DNA of 64,000 nucleotides, taken from the NCBI GenBank assembly GCA_016219285.1, contig JACRNJ010000051.1, positions 5,620 through 69,619 of the forward strand, given 5' to 3'. This DNA is from Deltaproteobacteria bacterium. Lineage in GTDB: Bacteria; Desulfobacterota; GWC2-55-46; UBA9637. Made by a program: the position numbers and the translations under genes. Under the pieces are notes generated by a model, which saw only the letters and a list, made by a program, of their open reading frames with translations, did no database searches and had not been told where the DNA came from. Below are positions 3,390 through 34,454 of this stretch, piece after piece. Position 1 is the stretch's first letter. Each line of letters begins with the position of its first letter.

Positions 3390-4955
3390 CTATCGGTATT
3401 TACTCCATCTTTCCATAAACATGTTAGTTAAAAAAACCATTTCCGGGCTTTTAAAAAAACGGGCAAAGAGTAAATAACATATAACACCAAAACTTATTGC
3501 AAGAGATAGCACCAATAGTCTCAGGATAGTGATACCCCCGTCAGACCAATCAACAAGAAGAGATATAGCATAGACACTAATTCCCATCGGTATGGATGAT
3601 ACTACCACTTTTACAGCAGAATTCAGTATCTTTCTTCCACCGATTCCACCCAGCCTCTTTCTAAGTATAAGGAAGAGAAGCAATAGATTCACAATTGACG
3701 AAAGCGATGTGGCCAAAGCAAGACCGCCGTGTCTCAAAGGACCAATAAGCAAGAAACAAAATATTATATTGGAAACTACTGTTATACAGCCAATCTTGAC
3801 CGGAGTTATTGTATCCTTAAGTGAATAGAAAGCAGATACCAGTATTCTTCCACCGCCAAATGCGACAAGACCAATGGAAAAGAAGTAAAGGGCATAAACA
3901 GTTCCTTTAGTTGCTTCATGACCAAACTCACCCCTTTGAAAAAGCATGGTAACAATAGGTTCGCCAAGCGCTAGAAGACCTATAGTAGAAGGAACGGTAA
4001 TAAAGGTTACAAGCCTTATGGCGAAGGAGAGTGACTCTTTAAAACCTGGCCAGTCTTTCTTTATGGCATATTCAGACATGGAAGGCAGCACGGCAGTTGC
4101 AACTGCAAGCACAAAGACACCCATCGGGAGTTCTACTACCCTGTCTGCATAATACAAGTAAGATATGCTGCCTTCTTTGAGCCCGGAGGCAAATCTGCTT
4201 GTAATAAGGATATTTATCTGGCTTACCCCTGTAGCAAGAGAAGCCGGCAGCATAAGGAGAATTATCTTTTTTATGGCAGGGTCATTAAAATTAAAATCAA
4301 GCTTTGGAAGCATGTCATATTGTTTAAGGTATGGGAGCTGATAAAGAAACTGAAATATGCCGCCAAAAACTACACCAAATGCAAGGGCATATACCGGCTC
4401 TTTAAAGAAAGAGATAAGGAAAATGGTGGAACCTATTATAGACAGATTAAACCAGACAGGAGACAGGGCCGGCGCTGTAAAATGTTTTAACGAGTTTAAA
4501 ACCCCCATACTTAAGGCGACAAGACATATAAAGAAAAGAAAAGGGAACATCCATTTTGTTAAAGACGTAGTAATTGCAAGTTTGTTTGGGGTAAAACCAG
4601 GCGCCATAATTTCTACTAGCTGTTCCGAAAATATAATGCCTGCTATTATAATTACTGTTAATATAATAGTGAAAAATGTAAATGCCCTTGAGGCTAAAGC
4701 TTTTGCTTTTTCTCTGGAACCGGTGGTTAGTTCTTCTGTAAATACCGGAATAAAGGATATTGTTAATGCCCCTTCACCAACGAGCCTCCTGAAAAAGTTT
4801 GGAATCCTGTAAGCGATAAAAAACACATCCGCATAAGTACCTGCGCCTAAAAATGCAGCAATAACCGCATCTCTTATATAACCCAGTATTCGGCTCAAAA
4901 ATGTGGCGCCACCCACAATAGAGGCGGCCTTTGTTATGTTTTTAGTCTCTGACAT
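3390..4955 (-). CDS. murJ: Lipid II flippase MurJ (MviN).
   Basis: 521 aa polytopic membrane protein. N-terminus AASIVGGATFLSRILGYIRD...YRIPNFFRRL is the MurJ signature. Confidence 0.9.
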   Translation of the reverse strand: MSETKNITKAASIVGGATFLSRILGYIRDAVIAAFLGAGTYADVFFIAYRIPNFFRRLVGEGALTISFIPVFTEELTTGSREKAKALASRAFTFFTIILTVIIIAGIIFSEQLVEIMAPGFTPNKLAITTSLTKWMFPFLFFICLVALSMGVLNSLKHFTAPALSPVWFNLSIIGSTIFLISFFKEPVYALAFGVVFGGIFQFLYQLPYLKQYDMLPKLDFNFNDPAIKKIILLMLPASLATGVSQINILITSRFASGLKEGSISYLYYADRVVELPMGVFVLAVATAVLPSMSEYAIKKDWPGFKESLSFAIRLVTFITVPSTIGLLALGEPIVTMLFQRGEFGHEATKGTVYALYFFSIGLVAFGGGRILVSAFYSLKDTITPVKIGCITVVSNIIFCFLLIGPLRHGGLALATSLSSIVNLLLLFLILRKRLGGIGGRKILNSAVKVVVSSIPMGISVYAISLLVDWSDGGITILRLLVLSLAISFGVICYLLFARFFKSPEMVFLTNMFMERWSKYR

Positions 4956-14884: not shown

Positions 14885-15124
14885 ATGAAGATAAAAGTAG
14901 GCACTGTTATGGATGAGGACATGGTATTCAAGGTAAAGGAGGCCGCCCTTACCCAGAGGAAGACTTTGAGCCAGATACTGGAAGATGCCTTGAAGGTTTA
15001 TCTGCAAGGACTGGAAAAGAAGGAAAAGAAGAAAAACCTGGCGCAGGATACCAGCGGGATAATGAAGATATCCAAGAAGGACCTTAAGGCAGTAATGGAA
15101 GAGAAAGGACTCTATGAGGCTTAG
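14885..15124 (+). CDS. Antitoxin-like small protein (VapB-like), partner of the downstream PIN protein.
   Basis: 79 aa, charged. The stop overlaps the start of the PIN gene. Typical type II TA organisation. Confidence 0.5.
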   Translation: MKIKVGTVMDEDMVFKVKEAALTQRKTLSQILEDALKVYLQGLEKKEKKKNLAQDTSGIMKISKKDLKAVMEEKGLYEA

Positions 15125-15617
15125 CAATATCAAGAGAGACGCTAATGTATTCATTGACGCAAATATCTTCATATATCACTTTACAGGCGCATCCAAAGAA
15201 TGCAGTGAGTTCCTGAAGAGATGCGAGCAAGGTGAGGTCTCCGGCATGACCTCTGTCATCGCCCTTCTTGAGGTGCTCCATAGATTGATGATGGTTGAAG
15301 CAGTCGGGAAAAAATTGGCGGCTCCGCCCAATATTGTTAAAAAACTTCAAAAACACCCGGAAAAAATTAAACAGTTAAAGGATTACTACTTGAATACCCG
15401 AAAGATTGCGGATATGGGGATAATCATCAAGCCGCTTACCTTTGAGACTGCGGAAAAGAGCAATTCATTCAGGACAGAATACGGCCTTATGGTAAATGAT
15501 TCAATCATTGCGGCAGGCATGGCGGAAGAGGGGATGGATTCTTTGGCGAGCAATGATGACGGATTCAGAAAAATCGGCAAATTTAAGGTCTATAGCCCTG
15601 GGGATGTGGAATTATAA
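15114..15617 (+). CDS. vapC: PIN-domain toxin (VapC family).
   Basis: VFIDANIFIY...D...NDSIIAAGMAEEGMDSLASND shows the PIN acidic residues. 167 aa, slightly long for VapC. Confidence 0.65.
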   Translation: MRLSNIKRDANVFIDANIFIYHFTGASKECSEFLKRCEQGEVSGMTSVIALLEVLHRLMMVEAVGKKLAAPPNIVKKLQKHPEKIKQLKDYYLNTRKIADMGIIIKPLTFETAEKSNSFRTEYGLMVNDSIIAAGMAEEGMDSLASNDDGFRKIGKFKVYSPGDVEL

Positions 15618-15797
15618 ATGCAGCAAAAGGGAAAGGTTGTTGTGGCAGTATCCGGAGAAAGGTCTATGAGCAAGTTCTTAAAAAGAAGGGCTGATAAATA
15701 TATACTGATAGACGATAACCAGACAGAAAAACACAAGCCGTATTTTTACCGGAATTTTTTGCGTTAAGGTTAAAACAAAATAACGGAGGCGGAAGTT

Positions 15798-16967
15798 ATG
15801 CTGGAGATTAAAAGCGGTAATCCATCAGATGCAGATGCCCCTGCATCGTATAACCGTTTTGTCCTTCCATTTGCTTATAATCTTGAAAAAATCACTTCTA
15901 AAGAAAAACAGAATCAATATTATGTCGCTGAAAATGATCCAGATAAAATCTGGAGGGAAAGATATCTAACCGAAGAAACTGCCGATGTTCTATTCCAGCG
16001 GACAAAATGGTTTGCATTGCAAAGCGATAACAAAGATCTGAAGTTTGACATACCAAAGACGGATGGCACTGGTTTTCTTACCGTCTGCATGAATCCTCCG
16101 AGGCTAGTGTTGTTTGAATGGCCTAAAAACATTGAAAACAGAAAAAAGGAAGAGGAAAAAAATACAGACTTGTTGCATACAGGTTTTCTTATTATAGAAC
16201 TTTACTTTGATAAGAGCGATGGAAATTGCCCAACACTGGATGACATGCTCAAGCTAAATGAAATGGAGTTTGATAAACAGGTCAAAGGCAATCGTTTTTC
16301 AATGCTGGCTGATTTGCTTGATAAGATGAAAGGTAACAAAGATTGGATGAATGGTGGTGAGTATCGTATAGAAACATTACTCTGGGGCGGCGACGAATTG
16401 ATGTGGGTTGTTCCTGCATGGAAGGGCTGGGAGACGCTTCAGTTCTTTTATGAGCAGTCAGGAACATGGGAGTTTACTAATACCAAAGGAGGGAAAGCCC
16501 CTCTTAAACATGCTGGCGGTCTGGTATTCTGTCATCACAATGCGCCTATCTACAGGATAAAGGATTTGGCAAGGAGGCTATCGGAGGCGGCAAAGAAGGA
16601 CAAATCCGGAAATCTGTTTGCCTATCAGGTATTGGAATCTTTTGACCATATCAGTAATGATTTCGACAAAATCCGCAAAAGTCAGGCTATAGGCGGTGAT
16701 GCGAATACTTTGATATTGGACGGGAAAGACATAGAAAATATCAGCAACAATATTAAGGCTCTCAAAGACAACGAATTTCCTAAAAATAAACTGCATGAGA
16801 TAACAAAGAGACTGAGAAATGGCGGGGATGCAAAGGATTTAATTGAAAAAGCCATAAAAGGATTATTAGTTGCCACGCAAACAGCGCTTGATAAACTCAA
16901 GGGTGATTGTAACGGCGACAACCCCAAATGGGGACATATCGCCGACCTGTGGGATTATATAGTCTAA
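15798..16967 (+). CDS. Miniature Cas10-like cyclase/palm-domain protein with intact GGDE motif. No HD domain and no second palm.
   Basis: RIETLLWGGDELMWVVPAW matches the Cas10 GGDD..h..GAW motif. Downstream AGGLVFCHHNAPIYRIKDLARRLSEAAKK matches the Cas10 SAGI.I.HHK.PLY..L..A..LL..AK segment. Helical C-terminal ~130 aa. Confidence 0.55.
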   Translation: MLEIKSGNPSDADAPASYNRFVLPFAYNLEKITSKEKQNQYYVAENDPDKIWRERYLTEETADVLFQRTKWFALQSDNKDLKFDIPKTDGTGFLTVCMNPPRLVLFEWPKNIENRKKEEEKNTDLLHTGFLIIELYFDKSDGNCPTLDDMLKLNEMEFDKQVKGNRFSMLADLLDKMKGNKDWMNGGEYRIETLLWGGDELMWVVPAWKGWETLQFFYEQSGTWEFTNTKGGKAPLKHAGGLVFCHHNAPIYRIKDLARRLSEAAKKDKSGNLFAYQVLESFDHISNDFDKIRKSQAIGGDANTLILDGKDIENISNNIKALKDNEFPKNKLHEITKRLRNGGDAKDLIEKAIKGLLVATQTALDKLKGDCNGDNPKWGHIADLWDYIV

Positions 16968-16986
16968 AAAAGGACAGGAGAAAATT

Positions 16987-18879
16987 ATGTTTAACATAAC
17001 ATTGACTGTAACCCTGACACTTGAAGGGCCGATACTCACCAAATCCACATCCATGGGTGGATACGGGTTGGATGCTGTAATGGCAAAAAATCATAACGGA
17101 GAATATTATCTGCCGGGCACATTGGTAAAAGGCAGGCTACTGCAGGCATGGCAGGAACTGCATGATGTGGTTGGCTCTGATTATAAAACATTGCTTGATG
17201 TAGATAAGCAGCTTGATGATTTTGCTAATTTGTGGCTCGGTAAAAAAAGTGGAAGCAGGAAAGACAGAGGGGCTGTTGATTCTTATAGGACAAAGATTCA
17301 TTTTACTGATTTTATCTATGCACCAGAAGCCAAAGCAGGCAGTACTCTTCATCGTATCCATATAGATAAGGATAGAGGTTCTGTAATAAAGGGAGCATTA
17401 TTAGTTATGGAAGCCCCCTTTGCAGTAGGTGAAGAAGTTGCATTTAAAGGGTCTATCAGTTTTACAACAATAAACAATGCCGAAGCTGCTGCGGTTAAGA
17501 AATGCGTGGATATTGGCTTAAAATGGATACCCAACTTTGGTAGTGAAAAGACCGTAGGTTTTGGGCGCCTCGTTAGAGTGTCAATAGATGAAAAATCTTT
17601 TCAAATTGTAGATGCTCACAGCGATGCATTGGGGAAAGAATTTCTGTACATCATTATCAACCCAGAAGCCCCCTTTTGTTTTGCCAAACGGCAGGTGAGC
17701 GATAACCTGTTCGAGTCGGAAGATATAATATCCGGTGGAGCAATCAAAGGAGCATTGGCGAGTACATGGGCAGGATTACTCGGCAAAAGCGGACATATTG
17801 AAATCACGAATGGTTTTGATAATAACAGGAAAGAATTGTCAGAGCATTTTCATGAAATCCGTATTACGCACGCATTCCCTATGCCTGTTGAAAGGAATGA
17901 GCGGCCTGTTGTTGCCCCGCTTTCATTAGCTAAGGTAAAAAAGAACGAAGAAGAAAAGGAGATTAAAGCCAATTATGATGTTGCTTTTGAGAAGGAGGCA
18001 AGATTGATTAATGGCTTTCCCGATAATGCCCCTGCTTTTGCCGTTGACTGGAAGGATAGCACAGATATAGAAAAAATCTTTGGTTGGGATGATAAGCCAA
18101 AGCGCGAACTGCGTGTCCGAACAGCGATGGATAGAGAAAGGCGTAAATCTAAAGATAAAGAGTTATTCGCTTATGAAATGGTTATCCCAACAGGCTTTAA
18201 GTGGGTGAGCCGAATTGACTTGAGCCGAATTACAGATGCAACAATTCGGGCAAAGGTGGAAGCCCAGCTCCGTCAACTTTTATCTCTGGGATTGATTGGA
18301 ATGAGCAAGAACAAAATATCGGCAAAAGTTGAGCCTGCTGATACTCATATAGAAAATAAAATAAAATCTGTCTGTGAACCTATAAACAGAAACGGACAGA
18401 AATATTGGGTAATCACTCTCCAAACTCCGGCAATCCTGTGTAATCCAACTGAGCTTAATGAAATAAGCACCAGTGAGGATTTATTTAATAATTATAAAAA
18501 AGTCTGGGACAAATTATCCAGTAGCACATTGGAATTATCCCATTTCTTTGCTACACAGTCTTTGGCAGGCGGTTACTATCTGCATAAGCGGTTTCAGGAC
18601 GGAAAGCCATATCGTCCTTATCTGCTGACAAACGCAGGCTCTGTATTTGTCTTTACTGAAAAAAGGGATGCAAAGGGCGTAATAGAAAAATGGCTGAAAA
18701 ACGGGTTGGATTTCCCACAGTGGGCAAAAAAAGAGTATGGTAAAGACGGAAAAGAAGACGGTGAATGCTGGCAAAACTGTCCCTATATCCCTGAAAACGG
18801 CTATGGTGAGATTGCTGTAAATATCCATCAGTCTTATTCGAATAATGCGGAAGGGGAGGTGAAAATCAATGTCCTTTAA
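16987..18879 (+). CDS. Fused double-RAMP protein (Cas7/Cas5 superfamily, two RRM-like domains).
   Basis: YYLPGTLVKGRL and ISGGAIKGALAS are RAMP P(G/S)xxKG-type loops. G-rich loops GSEKTVGFGRL and LGLIGM. C-terminal CWQNC. Confidence 0.55.
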   Translation: MFNITLTVTLTLEGPILTKSTSMGGYGLDAVMAKNHNGEYYLPGTLVKGRLLQAWQELHDVVGSDYKTLLDVDKQLDDFANLWLGKKSGSRKDRGAVDSYRTKIHFTDFIYAPEAKAGSTLHRIHIDKDRGSVIKGALLVMEAPFAVGEEVAFKGSISFTTINNAEAAAVKKCVDIGLKWIPNFGSEKTVGFGRLVRVSIDEKSFQIVDAHSDALGKEFLYIIINPEAPFCFAKRQVSDNLFESEDIISGGAIKGALASTWAGLLGKSGHIEITNGFDNNRKELSEHFHEIRITHAFPMPVERNERPVVAPLSLAKVKKNEEEKEIKANYDVAFEKEARLINGFPDNAPAFAVDWKDSTDIEKIFGWDDKPKRELRVRTAMDRERRKSKDKELFAYEMVIPTGFKWVSRIDLSRITDATIRAKVEAQLRQLLSLGLIGMSKNKISAKVEPADTHIENKIKSVCEPINRNGQKYWVITLQTPAILCNPTELNEISTSEDLFNNYKKVWDKLSSSTLELSHFFATQSLAGGYYLHKRFQDGKPYRPYLLTNAGSVFVFTEKRDAKGVIEKWLKNGLDFPQWAKKEYGKDGKEDGECWQNCPYIPENGYGEIAVNIHQSYSNNAEGEVKINVL

Positions 18880-20248
18880 AAATCGCTGGCGTATTGAGGG
18901 TATGCTCACTACTATAAGCCCGCTCCATATTGGCAGCGGGGATACTACAACCCGTGACAAAATATTAGACGAGAAGAAAAAAAAGAAAGCAGATATAGCA
19001 GCGGTTGCAACCGACCACGAAAACAAGCCGTATCTCCCCGGCTCAACACTGAAAGGCAATCTGCGTGCTTATCTTCGAAATAACGGACAGGATAAAAATG
19101 TTATAGATAAATTATTCGGTGCTGAAGACCCCAAGGCCAAAGATAGCTGCGGCGGGGCATTGGAGTTTTGGAATGTGAGGGTTGTTGATATGTCATCAAC
19201 ATTTGATGGGAAGAATGTCCCATACTGGTGTAAAGACCGCCTAACAGGAGTTACCGCATCTGCGGTCATAGACAGGCAGACCCGCACAGCAGCGAACCAG
19301 AAACTCTTTTACACTGAATATGTACCGAAGGGGATAGAGTTTAATGTCGTTATCACAGGGCAGGATTTGGATGATAAGGAAATTGCATTACTCATACATG
19401 CCCTGAATGGTTTCAAAGATGGCGGAGTTAATCTCGGCGCGGGGGAGGCGGATAACTGGGGTGGGTTTAGTTGGGAGTTAGAAACGGTCAAATGTATAGA
19501 GACGGATGATATTAAAAAGTGGCTTGCTAACCCTGATACTGTTGGGTATGAGATGATTAGTAATATAGGTAGAGATAAAAAAACAGATGTTGAATATATT
19601 GAAAAGCAACTAAAGCAATCCAAACCGGATATACTGTCACTTGCTTTTACTTTGACTTTTGATAGCTCATTTTTGGTAAACGATACAAGCAGGGACAGGG
19701 ATGCTAAAGATGGCACTGGTAAGAAAAAATTTGCTGACCACTACCCGCTTACAGATACAAGTGGGAAAGTGATACTCCCTTCAAAGTCTATCAGAGGGGC
19801 ATTCCGAAGTCAGGCGGAGCGGATACTGCGGACTATCGGTGGCGGGCAAGCTGCCTGTATAGACCACGAAAAAGCTGAAAGAAAAGCCTGCCCTTCAGTT
19901 TATGAAGTTGAAAAAGTTAAGGATAGTTGCCCCGCCTGTCAGGTTTTTGGATTATCCGGCTGGCGTTCTCCTGTGCAGTTCAGCGATTTTACCTATGTTA
20001 AGAATGGTGGAATAAAACGGCAACAGTTTGTTGCCATTGACAGATTTACCGGCGGCGGTGTTGACAGGGCGAAATTTGATGCAGATTATGCAGACCGTCC
20101 GGTATTGGAAGGTACTATTGCCATAGATATGACAAGATTGAGAAAAACGAAAGCGATAGGCTGGGGGCTTGGACTGGTTGCCTTGACTCTGCGAGACATG
20201 ATAGAGGGTGATGTTACTTTGGGTCTGGGCACATCTAAGGGTTACTGA
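18869..20248 (+). CDS. Fused double Cas7 (Csm3/Cmr4-like) protein with treble-clef zinc finger.
   Basis: ISPLHIGSGD...PYLPGSTLKGNLRAYL is a classic Csm3/Cmr4 N-terminus. Second domain ILPSKSIRGAFRS. C-x-C...CPAC-QVFG zinc finger. G-rich loop LGLGTSKGY. 11 nt overlap with the upstream gene. Confidence 0.65.
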   Translation: MSFKNRWRIEGMLTTISPLHIGSGDTTTRDKILDEKKKKKADIAAVATDHENKPYLPGSTLKGNLRAYLRNNGQDKNVIDKLFGAEDPKAKDSCGGALEFWNVRVVDMSSTFDGKNVPYWCKDRLTGVTASAVIDRQTRTAANQKLFYTEYVPKGIEFNVVITGQDLDDKEIALLIHALNGFKDGGVNLGAGEADNWGGFSWELETVKCIETDDIKKWLANPDTVGYEMISNIGRDKKTDVEYIEKQLKQSKPDILSLAFTLTFDSSFLVNDTSRDRDAKDGTGKKKFADHYPLTDTSGKVILPSKSIRGAFRSQAERILRTIGGGQAACIDHEKAERKACPSVYEVEKVKDSCPACQVFGLSGWRSPVQFSDFTYVKNGGIKRQQFVAIDRFTGGGVDRAKFDADYADRPVLEGTIAIDMTRLRKTKAIGWGLGLVALTLRDMIEGDVTLGLGTSKGY

Positions 20249-20345
20249 ACCTGTACAGTAAAAATTAAAGATAGTGATTTTAATATATTGAAAGAGAAAT
20301 TAAAGGAATGTCCTGATTGGTATAAAAACTTACTTAAATTTTTGT

Positions 20346-21179
20346 TTGAGGGTAAAAATCATGAGTAAAAAAAATAAAAGGAAAACATTCACTTCATTTC
20401 AGGCGCTGAATGAAGAGATGCAAAAAAGTTATAACGCAGGGAACCGGCGGTCTCAGTCCAAAGTCGCCACTGCTCCACAGCCCAAAACACAACTGAAAAA
20501 TGGAGGAAAACAAACTATGCCGGCACACACAAATAATAATACCAGCACATGGGATAACTTTCACAATCCATATCATTTTGTACCTGCAAAACAAAGTGGA
20601 AGGATTGATGATTTATGCCTTACTGCCTTTGATGACCGCCAACTCAACCATGTAACCCATGATCTATATGTTGACAACACCCACTCCGGCAGAGTTATCT
20701 GCCGCCTGACTGCGAAGTCCCCATTTTTTGTGGGAGATGAACGAACAAAAGAGGCTTCGGAAGAAGCGCCTGCCGAAGTTTCTAATTTTGAGATTGACGG
20801 GAAACCGGCTATACCGGCGTCATCCTTGAGAGGACTAATCTCCAACATTGCAGAAGCAGCGAGTAATTCGGCGATGAGGGTGATGGAAAACAGGTATTAT
20901 TCATATCGTGTCAATATGAGAAAGGGTTTGGGTTCATTAGGTATGATAATAAAAAATGATGACGGATATTATAGACTCCGACCCCTATCCCTGCCATCTC
21001 TATCATGGAATGATACACGTAACGAGGCAACTGTTGCACCTAAGTATAATAAAATGTTCACAACAGGTTTGCTAAAAGTTTATATAGATGGTTATCGAAA
21101 AAAAACCGAGTACAAATCCTACAGAAATGGAAATAAATCCAGGTTCTTTTCTTGCCGCCCCAAACCTAAAATCTTATAG
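20346..21179 (+). CDS. RAMP protein, N-terminal part (Cas7-like). Probably continuous with the next ORF via a frame change at the A8 run 21098-21105.
   Basis: GKPAIPASSLRGLISN RAMP loop and KGLGSLG G-rich segment. Overlaps the next ORF out of frame by 92 nt. Confidence 0.5.
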   Translation: MRVKIMSKKNKRKTFTSFQALNEEMQKSYNAGNRRSQSKVATAPQPKTQLKNGGKQTMPAHTNNNTSTWDNFHNPYHFVPAKQSGRIDDLCLTAFDDRQLNHVTHDLYVDNTHSGRVICRLTAKSPFFVGDERTKEASEEAPAEVSNFEIDGKPAIPASSLRGLISNIAEAASNSAMRVMENRYYSYRVNMRKGLGSLGMIIKNDDGYYRLRPLSLPSLSWNDTRNEATVAPKYNKMFTTGLLKVYIDGYRKKTEYKSYRNGNKSRFFSCRPKPKIL

Positions 21180-22734
21180 CGCTGATAATAATGAATACTG
21201 GTATATAAAAATTATTCCTTCAGCCGCTTTAACTGGTAATACTATTACCTGCAGAAATCCAAGAATTAAAACGATTACCAGTAGGGACGGCAGAGAAAGT
21301 AAATTTCTTAATGGGCAACTTGCCACCGGTGTGCCGATTAGCGAGGCTGAATATATCAAAAAAGGTAAACCGGCAGGTTATGAACGTGGTATCTTAAAAA
21401 TACTTAACATTAGGGAAAAAGATATTCCGGCCGGCAAATGGCATGAAATATTTTTACTTTATCGGGATGGAATTGAAGATAATCTGCCAACCTTTGAGGC
21501 AACAGATGCCGTAGAACAATTCCATGCTTTAGCCATGGAACGAACCCGTGAAGATGAAAAATTGCCGTTTGAGTTAAAGGGTTCAAACCGAAATTCTAAT
21601 CCATCAAAAGACAATCAAGGGATTGAACTTCGCACGGGCGACATTGTTTTTTTTGAGCCTGATAAAAATGACTATTCTAAAGTGGGAGAAGTCTCAGTAT
21701 CCTCTATCTGGCGGCACAGTGCGGGAGGAACCAGTCATGACTATTTTAATGCAATCTCCCCGGAAACCCTGCCTTTTAATCCAAAACGCAACTCTATCTC
21801 TATTGCCGAGCAGATGTTTGGCTTTGTAGAGCAGGATTTTTCAGAGTATAAATCCCTTATTAAAAATCGCCAGGCAAGGGCACTTGCTGGAAGACTCAGA
21901 TTTTCTCATGCGAAAGAAGGCAAGGATAACGGCTCAAACTGTTATATTGCTCCCATAACGCTTAAAATACTCGACAGCCCAAAGCCGCCCTCACCTGACA
22001 TGTACTTTAAACATAATAGTGGTGCTGGCGGTTATATCAGCAAACAAGAACTATCACCAAAAAAACATCATCCCCATGGACGAAAGTTTTATCTGCATCA
22101 AAAACAGGACGACAAACCATGGGAGACTCTGAAGCCCAACGATCACTGCAAGCAAAAAGTCAAAATAACACCAGTTAAGGACGAGGCTGTTTTTTATTTT
22201 CACATAGATTACGACAATCTTAGTGAACTTGAACTGGGATTATTGCTATATTCTCTCAATCCGTCAGACACCTTCCGGCATAAACTTGGAATGGGGAAGC
22301 CGATCGGACTTGGCACTGTCAAAATAGAGCCTGTGGGTCTGTTTACTGTTAATAGAAAAGACCGCTATTCTAAACAGACTGCAAATCTATTTAATGAGAA
22401 ACGGTATCACAATGCATGGGTGAAGGATGGAACTAATTCATGGCCTCCTATTTATGACCGTGAAAAGACAGAATATGGAGATGGAAGCTTACTCATTAAG
22501 TTAGATTATGAAAAGATTAAGAAAGACTTTGCAGACAAAATGGATAAAGATATACAAAAGGCTCTGGAGATTTTGGGCGACCCGGCAAAAGTAACAATCC
22601 CTGCTGTCCATTATCCGCAACTCAAAGGTAAGGATATAGAAAATGAAAACTTCAGATGGTTCGTAAAAAATGATGACCGTAATAATACGAATAAGCAGTT
22701 TTTAGAGCCGATAAAACTTACTGGTTTAAAATGA
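21088..22734 (+). CDS. Large RAMP protein, C-terminal part, with long insertion (Csm5/Cas5-like capping subunit candidate).
   Basis: C-terminal G-rich loop KLGMGKPIGLGTVKIEPVG typical of RAMPs. In +1 frame relative to the upstream ORF. Confidence 0.5.
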   Translation: MVIEKKPSTNPTEMEINPGSFLAAPNLKSYSADNNEYWYIKIIPSAALTGNTITCRNPRIKTITSRDGRESKFLNGQLATGVPISEAEYIKKGKPAGYERGILKILNIREKDIPAGKWHEIFLLYRDGIEDNLPTFEATDAVEQFHALAMERTREDEKLPFELKGSNRNSNPSKDNQGIELRTGDIVFFEPDKNDYSKVGEVSVSSIWRHSAGGTSHDYFNAISPETLPFNPKRNSISIAEQMFGFVEQDFSEYKSLIKNRQARALAGRLRFSHAKEGKDNGSNCYIAPITLKILDSPKPPSPDMYFKHNSGAGGYISKQELSPKKHHPHGRKFYLHQKQDDKPWETLKPNDHCKQKVKITPVKDEAVFYFHIDYDNLSELELGLLLYSLNPSDTFRHKLGMGKPIGLGTVKIEPVGLFTVNRKDRYSKQTANLFNEKRYHNAWVKDGTNSWPPIYDREKTEYGDGSLLIKLDYEKIKKDFADKMDKDIQKALEILGDPAKVTIPAVHYPQLKGKDIENENFRWFVKNDDRNNTNKQFLEPIKLTGLK

Positions 22735-23540
22735 TTAACATAGAAAAACTCACCTTCTTCCTCGGCGGCCACGACCTCGAAATGCTCACTATTCGTGAGA
22801 TTCTTGAAGAACATGCGCCGGGGCGGTTCTTTGACAAAGGGCTTTCGTGGGGCGCGAAGGCTTCGGATTACAGGAAAGAAATTCAGGAGGTTCTTGCAAA
22901 TGGCAGGGTTCCGGTTCTGGTTGAGTTGACGCTTGACATGGAGATTGATGAAGGGCTGACCATAATCATAGACCATCATGGAGAAAGGGCAGGGTCGGAT
23001 AATCCAACATCTCTCCATCAGATTTTTGACCTCCTGAATCTGCCGCAGGATAAATGGACTCGGTGGTTTGACCTGGTTGCCGCCAATGACCGGGGGTATA
23101 TTCCCGCCATGCTTGAAACAGGCGCTACGCAAGAGGAGATAATAAAGGTTCGGGCAGCGGATCGCGCTGCGCAGGGGATTACGGCGGAGGAAGAGGCTGA
23201 AGGAGAAAAGGCGGCGGCAAACGCAGAGGTCTTTGCCGACGGGATGCTCACATTAGTGTGCCTGCCGCATACACGGACAGCAACTGTTGCCGACCGTCTG
23301 GAGGCATCCCTTGGCGGTCCTGGGTACAAAAACCTCCTGATTATTTCACCGACACAGGTAAATTTCTTCGGAGCCGGAAAACTTATATATGTCCTTGATG
23401 AGGCATTCCCCGGCGGCTGGTATGGCGGGGCGTTGCCGGAGAGGGGCTTTTGGGGTCACGGCAATCCTGTGCCGGATGTAATGCCGTTACTTATGGATAA
23501 GTTATGCTCTTTGACAACCAGAAATATAAATGGGAAGTAA
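22731..23540 (+). CDS. Hypothetical metal-dependent phosphohydrolase-like protein (H-D and D-H-H motifs), translationally coupled to the RAMP gene. Locally high GC.
   Basis: ATGA overlap with the upstream stop. Motifs LGGHDLE and IIIDHHGE. Visibly more GC-rich codons than its neighbours. Confidence 0.35.
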   Translation: MINIEKLTFFLGGHDLEMLTIREILEEHAPGRFFDKGLSWGAKASDYRKEIQEVLANGRVPVLVELTLDMEIDEGLTIIIDHHGERAGSDNPTSLHQIFDLLNLPQDKWTRWFDLVAANDRGYIPAMLETGATQEEIIKVRAADRAAQGITAEEEAEGEKAAANAEVFADGMLTLVCLPHTRTATVADRLEASLGGPGYKNLLIISPTQVNFFGAGKLIYVLDEAFPGGWYGGALPERGFWGHGNPVPDVMPLLMDKLCSLTTRNINGK

Positions 23541-23580
23541 GAAGTAAGAAGTTAAAACTTCCTATTTCCCATTTCCCGTT
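23530..23580. repeat. Left inverted repeat of the four-helix-bundle gene cassette (AAATGGGAAGTAAGAAGTAAGAAG...).
   Basis: Reverse-complement partner at 23960-24010. Confidence 0.5.
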
Positions 23581-23605
23581 TGTCACTTGCTTTACTTGGA
23601 TACAA

Positions 23606-23962
23606 ATGGGAAGTAAAAATGAAGAGCTTGGAAAACGGTTTTATGATTTTGCATTAAGGATTATAAGGCTTGTTAGAAAGTTGCCTAAGGAGATAGCAGC
23701 CAACGAAATAGGCAGGCAATTATTGAGGTCAGGCACCTCAATTGCCGCCAACTATGAAGAAGCCACCGGCGCATTCAGCAGGGAAGATTTTACTTATAAA
23801 CTGAGTATAGCCTTTAAAGAGACCAAAGAAACAACATTGTGGTTAAGGCTTCTACGCGATTCCGGTATAAGTGGCGATGAGATCGGGGATATTATTAAGG
23901 AATCGGAGGAAATCAGAAACATTCTTGGCAAAAGTGTGAAGACTGCAAAAGAAAACAGGTAA
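23606..23962 (+). CDS. Four-helix-bundle protein (family commonly found in 23S rRNA intervening sequences).
   Basis: ~118 aa, FYDFALRIIRL...SIAANYEEATGA...ETKETTLWLRL are typical of this family. Flanked by inverted repeats. Confidence 0.7.
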   Translation: MGSKNEELGKRFYDFALRIIRLVRKLPKEIAANEIGRQLLRSGTSIAANYEEATGAFSREDFTYKLSIAFKETKETTLWLRLLRDSGISGDEIGDIIKESEEIRNILGKSVKTAKENR

Positions 23963-24010
23963 CTCTTTCTACTTCCCATTTCTTACTTTCTACTTCCCAT
24001 TTATCCCTTG
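23960..24010. repeat. Right inverted repeat of the four-helix-bundle cassette (...CTACTTCCCATTTCTTACTTTCTACTTCCCATTT).
   Basis: Reverse complement of the left repeat motif GGGAAGTAAGAAG. Confidence 0.5.
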
Positions 24011-33673: not shown

Positions 33674-33878
33674 AACAACCTGTTGATTTCTGACAATATC
33701 GGCAGACATGCTTAAATCAGCCTCCCGCCTTACAAAGACTCCATCTTCCGCGGCGGATTCGGCCATGCATTCAAGAAAGTTGTATGCACCATAAGAAACA
33801 AGGATTGTGACAACTGCCTCCTTAAATCAAAATGTATCTATTCTTATGCGTTTTAAATGACAATAATTAATAAAATAG

Positions 33879-34379: not shown

Positions 34380-34454
34380 GGGCGGTTAACTCAGCGGCAG
34401 AGTGTCACCTTCACACGGTGGAAGCCACTGGTTCAAATCCAGTACCGCCCACCA
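34380..34454 (+). tRNA. tRNA-Val (anticodon CAC).
   Basis: Cloverleaf folded by hand: acceptor GGGCGGU/ACCGCCC, anticodon loop UUCACAC, T-loop GGUUCAAAUCC, CCA encoded. Confidence 0.85.

Follow-up and report, generated by a model that had tools for sequence, protein, structure and literature searches.

The described CRISPR-Cas system closest to the locus analyzed here is the type III-D2 complex of Gammaproteobacteria bacterium HyVt-522 (9wxh, 9wxi, and 9wxj), reported in 2026 (PMC13294483). This complex cuts its target RNA once and makes S-adenosylmethionine-AMP (SAM-AMP) for a CorA pore (PMC13294483). In its Cas10, the Palm1 domain holds the SAM pocket (residues E8, N11, L12, S29, S123, and Q186 in 9wxh) and docks on the Cas5 lid, the linker senses the 3′ anti-tag, and the C-terminal domain (CTD) is Cas11-like, contacting Cas7.1, Cas7.4, and the target RNA (PMC13294483). 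SAM-AMP is degraded by NrN in CorA systems (PMC10600005), of which the ribonuclease NYN is another known accessory (PMC11346440). Our locus lies on contig JACRNJ010000051.1 (93 kb; assembly GCA_016219285.1) of an uncultured, metagenome-assembled deltaproteobacterium, within a stretch of 64,000 nt that we call the window; all positions are 1-based on its forward strand. Six plus-strand open reading frames (ORFs), overlapping or closely spaced, are packed into 15.8–23.5 kb (Table 1), and an initial annotation had read them as a compact, array-less type III-like RAMP effector locus of unusual composition. Profile and PDB sequence searches agree with the type III-like character, the fused subunits, and the layout of co-oriented, mostly overlapping genes that it described. 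We conclude that the locus is very probably the remnant of a type III-D2-like system that was associated with CorA and NrN, belonged to a branch with separate Cas7-2x and Cas7.4 proteins, and was inactivated recently. The sequence itself shows what the parts and the lesions are. Every truly unusual feature is a lesion: the fusion of a corA 5′ part to a cas10 3′ part, the cas7.4 frameshift, the NYN and cas6 fragments, and the absent array and adaptation genes.

Table 1. Coordinates of the features of the locus and of the giant ORFs found in related loci
Feature	Sequence	Position	Strand	Description
vapBC pair	Window	14885-15617	+	VapB-like antitoxin at 14885-15124, VapC with PIN domain at 15114-15617; immediately precedes the putative relic
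NYN ribonuclease gene remnant	Window	15618-15767	+	49 codons, equivalent to residues 131-179 of a 181-aa NYN
389-aa ORF (chimera)	Window	15798-16967	+
5′ corA remnant	Window	15798-16265	+	Codons 1-156 of the 389-aa ORF; start of the cytoplasmic N-terminal domain; transmembrane pore domain deleted
3′ cas10 remnant	Window	16266-16967	+	Codons 157-389; part of Palm2 with GGDE (residues 197-200) and the Cas11-like C-terminal domain
cas7-5	Window	16987-18879	+	Cas7.1-Cas5 fusion, 630 aa; intact; catalytic-loop Asp29 present
cas7-2x	Window	18869-20248	+	Cas7.2 and Cas7.3 with zinc finger, 459 aa; intact
cas7.4	Window	20361-22734	+	Cas7 with insertion and C-terminal extension (TIGR03986); single gene of ~790 codons with a one-base frameshift
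277-aa ORF	Window	20346/20361-21179	+	First part of cas7.4
A8 run	Window	21098-21105	+	Frameshift (+1); dropping one A restores ...LLKVYIDGYRKK followed by PSTNPTEMEINPGSF...
548-aa ORF	Window	21088-22734	+	Second part of cas7.4
nrn	Window	22731-23540	+	DHH-family phosphodiesterase, 269 aa; intact; DHH motif IIIDHHGE
cas6 fragment	Window	33716-33853	+	~46 codons; covers about residues 25-75 of a Cas6 of ~300 aa
Giant ORF	L016	10751-16621		Thermoanaerobaculia
Giant ORF	L018	10751-16636		Thermoanaerobaculia
Giant ORF	L019	5599-11613		Thermoanaerobaculia
Giant ORF	L021	6912-12755		Thermoanaerobaculia

Comparison with described systems

The effector proteins are most similar to the subunits of the III-D2 complex. 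Cas7-5 aligns with 9wxh_C at an E-value of 3e-120 (residues 3–614 against 3–608), Cas7-2x, comprising Cas7.2, Cas7.3, and the zinc finger, with residues 16–457 of 9wxh_D (Cas7x3) at 1.5e-76, the 790-aa Cas7.4 obtained by repairing the frameshift, with its insertion (INS) and C-terminal extension (CTE), with the C-terminal part of 9wxh_D at 1.5e-98, and residues 154–388 of the 389-aa ORF with residues 322–579 of the 592-residue Cas10 chain 9wxh_B at 5e-46. The fusion of Cas5 to a Cas7.1 bearing the catalytic Asp, by which III-D2 is recognized, is present in the 630-aa protein, previously described as a fused double RAMP, which also matches the PADLOC model PDLC01408 (‘CAS-III-D effector_G5’) end to end (4e-86). 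Likewise, the 459-aa protein is the fused double Cas7 with a zinc finger that had been proposed, as its C..C..CxxC motif and its match to PADLOC Cas7_IIId (2e-48) indicate. Both systems have an HD-less Cas10 and a corA gene adjoining cas10, and a PIN-type toxin-antitoxin pair lies near each; the pair here may not be part of the system. Both also lack a separate Cas11, and this absence, already pointed out for our locus, is explained because the CTD of the III-D2 Cas10 is itself Cas11-like.

Cas7x3 is one polypeptide in III-D2, whereas here all three domains are present in two genes, the second of them frameshifted. The III-D2 Cas10 consists of Palm1, linker, Palm2 (GGDE), and the Cas11-like CTD, whereas here the equivalents of 9wxh_B residues 1–321, comprising Palm1, the linker, and the start of Palm2, are missing. 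Instead of a CorA membrane effector there are 156 CorA residues fused to the Cas10 remnant, and instead of cas6 and an array there is a cas6 fragment and no array in 64 kb. Compared with HyVt-522, our locus additionally contains the NrN gene, and its VapBC pair has no homologue in the 83 related loci that we analyzed, comprising 80 of the 222 loci from a one-genome-per-species scan and three metagenomic loci.

Other described systems share parts of this architecture. The type III-Dv complex of Synechocystis sp. PCC 6803 (8s9t–8s9x; PMC11026444) also has separate genes for Cas7-2x (8s9t_D; 2e-11) and for the Cas7 with insertion (TIGR03986; 8s9t_E; 1.6e-21), and both it and our locus occupy a position intermediate between type III-E and the multi-subunit type III systems. 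However, III-Dv has a Cas7-Cas5-Cas11 triple fusion, whereas the 630-aa protein is a Cas7-Cas5 without the Cas11 domain, and its PDB search did not recover the III-Dv chain at E ≤ 0.1. Our locus has CorA and NrN accessories; Csx19, a subunit of III-Dv, was not identified in it, although no search aimed at it was made, and its sequence places our locus much nearer to III-D2. The Cas7.2–7.4 and INS parts of the type III-E effector Cas7-11/gRAMP have homologues here in Cas7-2x and Cas7.4, but III-E is a single effector without Cas5 and Cas10, whereas here Cas7-5, Cas7-2x, and Cas7.4 are separate, the Cas5/Cas10 lineage is kept, no TPR-CHAT was found in the window, and the NCBIfam gRAMP scores are 48–74 bits against a cut-off of 700. 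These weaker matches to III-Dv subunits and Cas7-11 bear out the resemblance to III-D variant and III-E backbones noted at the outset. The type III-B Cmr/CorA/NrN/NYN system of Bacteroides fragilis (PMC10600005, PMC11346440) has the same accessories, CorA, NrN, and NYN; its backbone is Cmr, in contrast to the III-D2-like fused RAMPs here, where CorA and NYN are left only as fragments. The ancestor of our locus would have signaled by the same logic.

An NrN encoded together with corA is the mark of the CorA-type SAM-AMP module (PMC10600005), and such a gene closes the operon. Its 269-aa product, described before as a coupled, high-GC putative phosphohydrolase, is a DHH phosphohydrolase (the gene has 52% GC against 42% across the window) that matches the solved NrN 9lq9_A at 8e-27, PADLOC C3a116 at 5e-79, and DHH_CorA (‘DHH family hydrolase, CorA associated’) at 9e-43. 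These matches identify the last ORF as NrN, the DHH enzyme with which CorA systems degrade SAM-AMP. The gene set thus fits the described III-D2/III-Dv lineage with CorA and NrN (PMC13294483, PMC10600005), so the view that the locus was of unusual composition and not a textbook subtype is not upheld.

The CorA-Cas10 chimera

The first ORF of the operon had been taken for a Cas10-like palm protein of ~390 aa, a miniature large subunit. Only residues ~157–389 are derived from Cas10, and residues 1–156 are the N-terminus of CorA. None of the 763 Cas10 homologues, which are typically 460–500 aa long, matches the 389-aa query beyond its C-terminal ~60%, and the alignment shows that their conserved N-terminal 230 residues are missing from the query. 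This half carries the conserved sequence YYLRxEGVNLSNFVYDTQDLSTxRGGGLLLL ... MAVIYLDGNxFGKI in the homologues. Searches for its remnants in any frame of positions 15000–16400 by tblastn (word size 2, E ≤ 50) returned only noise, indicating that the missing half was deleted rather than frameshifted. What is left of cas10 keeps the GGDE motif; Palm1, the linker, and the DGNxFG strand that precedes GGDE are gone.

In place of the missing half, residues 1–156 of the ORF align with residues 1–154 of the 560-aa CorA P0134 (57% identity by BLASTP; 59%, E = 1.3e-45, by phmmer), a protein assigned to CorA by PADLOC (2.5e-44). They also match residues 1–145 of the CorA encoded directly upstream of cas10 in the related locus L004 (48% identity, E = 4e-35), with which the ORF shares the start methionine (MLEIVCGNPS in the ORF and MLEIKSGNPS in L004), and the N-termini of corA in 38 related loci. 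The PADLOC CorA models cover residues ~95–550 of the relatives’ CorA (~540–560 aa), and that part is missing here. In the 38 relatives, the end of the CorA N-terminal match and the start of the Cas10 C-terminal match are separated by 1822–2916 nt (median 1991 nt), yet in the window the two halves abut with a distance of 0, which points to fusion by a deletion of ~2 kb. The 389-aa protein is evidently a chimera, in which this deletion joined corA codon 156 to the final 233 codons of cas10 with the reading frame preserved. The deletion evidently removed the CorA pore domain together with Palm1 and its SAM pocket, the 3′ anti-tag linker, and the conserved DGNxFG strand of Cas10.

No counterpart of the chimera at a similar size was found in two very large sequence libraries. 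A phmmer search of 1.84 billion representatives returned two classes of hits, Cas10 proteins matching query residues ~150–389 and the CorA P0134 matching residues 1–156. No short protein other than the query covered both halves in 5.8 billion sequences or in the 1.84 billion representatives. The only other protein matching both halves is a full-length CorA-Cas10 fusion of 1134 aa from the representative library (P0121; CorA model at residues 166–552 and Cas10 models at 590–1016), which has 676 residues between them. The uniqueness of the chimera fits a lineage-specific accident rather than a conserved design. Natural full-length fusions of signaling partners do exist, as P0121 and an NrN-CorA fusion of 781 aa (locus L003, 3–2348) illustrate, and fusions of the latter kind have been noted previously (PMC10600005).

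A family of miniature Cas10 proteins was considered for the 389-aa ORF, as PADLOC includes short Cas10 models of 370–460 positions. Homologues of similar size keep the N-terminal half, and the CorA identity of the N-terminus also rules this reading out. The same evidence bears on the broader proposal that the locus is a functional, streamlined, array-less type III variant, a compact effector of five proteins with a genuinely miniature, HD-less Cas10. Such a variant would agree with the co-oriented, translationally coupled ORFs, with the retained GGDE, and with the three proteins that are intact and keep their motifs. We nevertheless regard it as very improbable, for residues 1–156 are CorA and not a reduced palm, the N-terminal half of Cas10 with DGNxFG is absent, the short architecture is unique to one sequence, Cas7.4 is frameshifted, the NYN and cas6 fragments mark decay, and the relatives are ordinary array-bearing systems.

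The cas7.4 frameshift

The large RAMP annotated as two ORFs of 277 and 548 aa consists of two halves of one TIGR03986 protein, as had been recognized, but the division is a single-base frameshift and not a two-gene design. The two ORFs match TIGR03986 positions 1–122 and 218–542, respectively, and overlap by 92 nt in different frames, with the frame switch at an A8 run. The repaired protein is colinear across the junction with intact orthologues of 769–835 aa (...LLKVYIDGYRKK, then P...PGSFLA...SYSAD..YWY). Selenocysteine read-through was considered for the split ORF, with selA located next door, and was rejected because the ORFs lie in different frames with a 92-nt overlap.

Neither the frameshift nor the deletion appears to be an error in the contig. 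The source is a metagenome-assembled genome (MAG), and homopolymers are error-prone on some platforms, which would favor an assembly or sequencing artifact at the junction and at the A8 run. However, two independent Logan assemblies from different runs (SRR12113394 and SRR12113407) agree with the window at 100% identity over 9.8 and 8.4 kb, spans that include both the A8 run and the corA/cas10 junction (16265/16266), and other A8 runs in neighboring genes are in frame. With three assemblies in agreement, a sequencing error in the A8 run was rejected, and an artifactual origin of the two lesions is scarcely credible.

Gene fragments and crRNA supply

Two further genes of the ancestral system are represented only by fragments. 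The 150 nt between vapC and the chimera are filled by a remnant of an NYN ribonuclease gene, the sole unassigned small ORF within the operon, which is 65% identical to the NYN encoded just upstream of corA in L004 (tblastn, E = 1e-15). The vapBC pair ends at 15617, one nucleotide before the NYN fragment starts at 15618, and sits where the 5′ part of the NYN gene would be. This arrangement suggests that the first ~130 codons of NYN were lost when vapBC was introduced or placed next to it. VapC matches the PIN family PF01850 at 2.7e-12, and VapB has only a weak match to DUF6364. A conserved III-D2 toxin-antitoxin module was considered for the pair but is unsupported by the 83 relatives, where no VapBC homologue was found even at E ≤ 1; VapBC may not belong to the ancestral system.

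The second fragment derives from cas6. No recognizable Cas6 had been reported, and it is correct that no cas6 gene is present, but 16 different Cas6 proteins of related loci match a 46-codon fragment, the best with 57% identity (E = 1.7e-13). This fragment lies in the spacer between greA and trxA, near a tRNA gene (34380–34451); selA, rpsA, sppA, and metH separate it from the effector genes, which lie 10 kb upstream. It may reflect either a rearrangement that divided a single locus or the decay of a second locus at this site. Another weak Cas6 match on the plus strand at 4059–4358 was obtained with a single query (L062; 32% identity, E = 2e-4) within a 521-aa minus-strand ORF and was set aside as probably due to chance.

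The machinery for acquiring and storing spacers is absent from the window, as initially reported. No CRISPR array was found in the 64 kb by TRF, a repeat finder, Rfam, or a periodic k-mer detector, nor was any similarity to cas1 or cas2, and the window contains no full CorA. The repeats of the relatives end in ...ATTGAGAC/ATTGAAAC, and these termini were not found in the window either; the detector that finds arrays in the relatives returns nothing here. In the relatives, the usual gene order is (cas6)-corA-cas10-cas7-5-cas7-2x/cas7.4-nrn-RT-cas1-cas2-array, where RT denotes reverse transcriptase. A corA gene is located upstream in 39 of the 52 loci with enough upstream sequence, and NrN is encoded in 19 of the 37 with enough downstream sequence. 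In 19 loci the sequence extends for at least 9 kb to either side; 16 of them contain an array, and 18 contain one or more of array, cas6, cas1, and cas2. Cas7-2x and Cas7.4 are encoded by separate genes in 31 of 52 loci and fused in the remaining 21, so an arrangement in two genes is nothing unusual in this family.

Function and probable decay of the locus

The characterized relatives suggest how the ancestral system would have worked. A complex of Cas7-5, Cas7-2x, Cas7.4, and Cas10 loaded with CRISPR RNA (crRNA) would have bound foreign RNA, upon which Cas10 would have joined SAM and ATP into SAM-AMP. SAM-AMP would then have opened the CorA membrane pore and caused growth arrest, and NrN would have degraded SAM-AMP and reset the signal. 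The crRNAs would have been matured by Cas6, and probably also by NYN. The present locus should be able neither to signal, because the SAM pocket is gone and the palm is incomplete, nor to kill, because the CorA pore is gone. The supply of crRNA also appears to be missing locally. The inactivation looks recent: cas7-5 with Asp29, cas7-2x with its zinc finger, and nrn with its DHH motif are intact, and there is a single frameshift in 7.7 kb, which argues for recent decay rather than a new minimal system. We speculate that losing the toxic pore and the synthase together would have been a simple escape from autoimmunity.

Several observations weigh against a dead relic. Cas7-5, Cas7-2x, and NrN are complete in length, with catalytic or structural motifs preserved, and the deletion left the fused ORF in frame and did not remove GGDE. 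Some residual or altered function is thus conceivable, and transcriptional or translational slippage could partly bypass the A8 frameshift, homopolymer runs being established slippage sites. An array and cas6 could lie elsewhere, as the scan covered 64 kb of a 93-kb contig in one MAG. The 10 kb of housekeeping genes between the cas6 fragment and the effectors make it possible that the fragment stems from a different, older locus. Finally, the relatives lack the closeness (more than ~65% identity) that a selection test or a dating of the lesions would need.

These points are relevant to the possibility that the relic is partly functional, with Cas7-5, Cas7-2x, and a slippage-restored Cas7.4 working on crRNAs from a distant array, the Cas10 CTD serving as a scaffold, target cleavage proceeding without signaling, and NrN perhaps scavenging SAM-AMP. 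Cas7.1 Asp29 and the zinc finger are kept, the Cas10 CTD of III-D2 contacts Cas7.1, Cas7.4, and target RNA, the A8 run is a plausible slippage site, and the rest of the genome lies outside the examined 64 kb. However, the window has no array and only a fragment of cas6. With the loss of Palm1, the domain that docks onto the Cas5 lid in 9wxh, the anchoring of Cas10 becomes doubtful, and a truncated CorA domain joined to half a palm is unlikely to fold. The frameshift is also fixed in all three assemblies. Partial function is therefore improbable, although it is the least improbable of the alternatives to inactivation considered here. A more elaborate version would make the chimera a domesticated Cas11-like scaffold that retains part of the domain sensing SAM-AMP. 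Together with Cas7-5, Cas7-2x, and Cas7.4 restored by slippage, it would assemble on crRNAs supplied by a distant array into a signaling-free, RNA-guided RNase, with the dosage of Cas7.4 set by the A8 run; we consider this a long shot. Recent inactivation of a III-D2-like system remains our preferred explanation.

Flanking genes and a possible 3′ cassette

The locus sits amid housekeeping genes, with profile searches of the flanks identifying a SIS-domain protein, selA, rpsA, sppA, a HIT protein, metH, greA, trxA, and tRNAs. It is framed, as first described, by the VapB/PIN pair upstream and a four-helix-bundle gene downstream. The latter belongs to the 23S rRNA intervening-sequence protein family (TIGR02436; window 23526–24004, likely start at 23606) and lies between 25-nt inverted repeats with 92% complementarity (ATAAATGGGAAGTAAGAAGTAAGAA at 23526–23550 and TTCTTACTTTCTACTTCCCATTTAT at 23980–24004), and the motif AAATGGGAAGTA occurs twice on either side of it. 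The left repeat arm overlaps the last codons of nrn. The nrn product is 69% identical to its L004 orthologue, and its similarity to orthologues ends ~11 residues before the stop. The four-helix-bundle gene has the appearance of a small cassette that was inserted where nrn ends.

Architectures of related loci

Our survey of the relatives yielded architectures of more interest than the window itself. L004 (Logan SRR13949427, 1–21247) encodes a III-D2-like series of NYN, CorA, Cas10, Cas7-5, Cas7x3, and NrN followed by a 920-aa TPR-CHAT protease, thus pairing two output modules in one III-D2-like locus. Upstream it has sigma-70-like and zf-HC2 anti-sigma-like genes and RT-Cas1/Cas2, and a mini-array of two repeats is located at 18043–18134. 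In four MAGs of Thermoanaerobaculia, one stop-to-stop ORF of ~1950–2000 codons spans Cas7-5, Cas7-2x, and Cas7.4 (Table 1). All five RAMP domains are therefore in one polypeptide beside a separate Cas10, one fusion step past Cas7x3.

Significance

The main value of this analysis lies in correcting a reading: a compact type III system without an array and with a miniature Cas10 would have been striking, but the locus is very probably a pseudogenized copy of a CorA/SAM-AMP III-D2 system, a lineage already characterized structurally and functionally in 2026. The analysis also carries a warning for annotation, in that weak matches to the Cas10 palm on short ORFs can be deletion chimeras. For the family itself, the locus would provide a clean natural case of disarming, of modest value, in which the pocket of the signal synthase and the toxic pore were lost in one deletion and the RNA-binding backbone was disrupted by a frameshift in a homopolymer.

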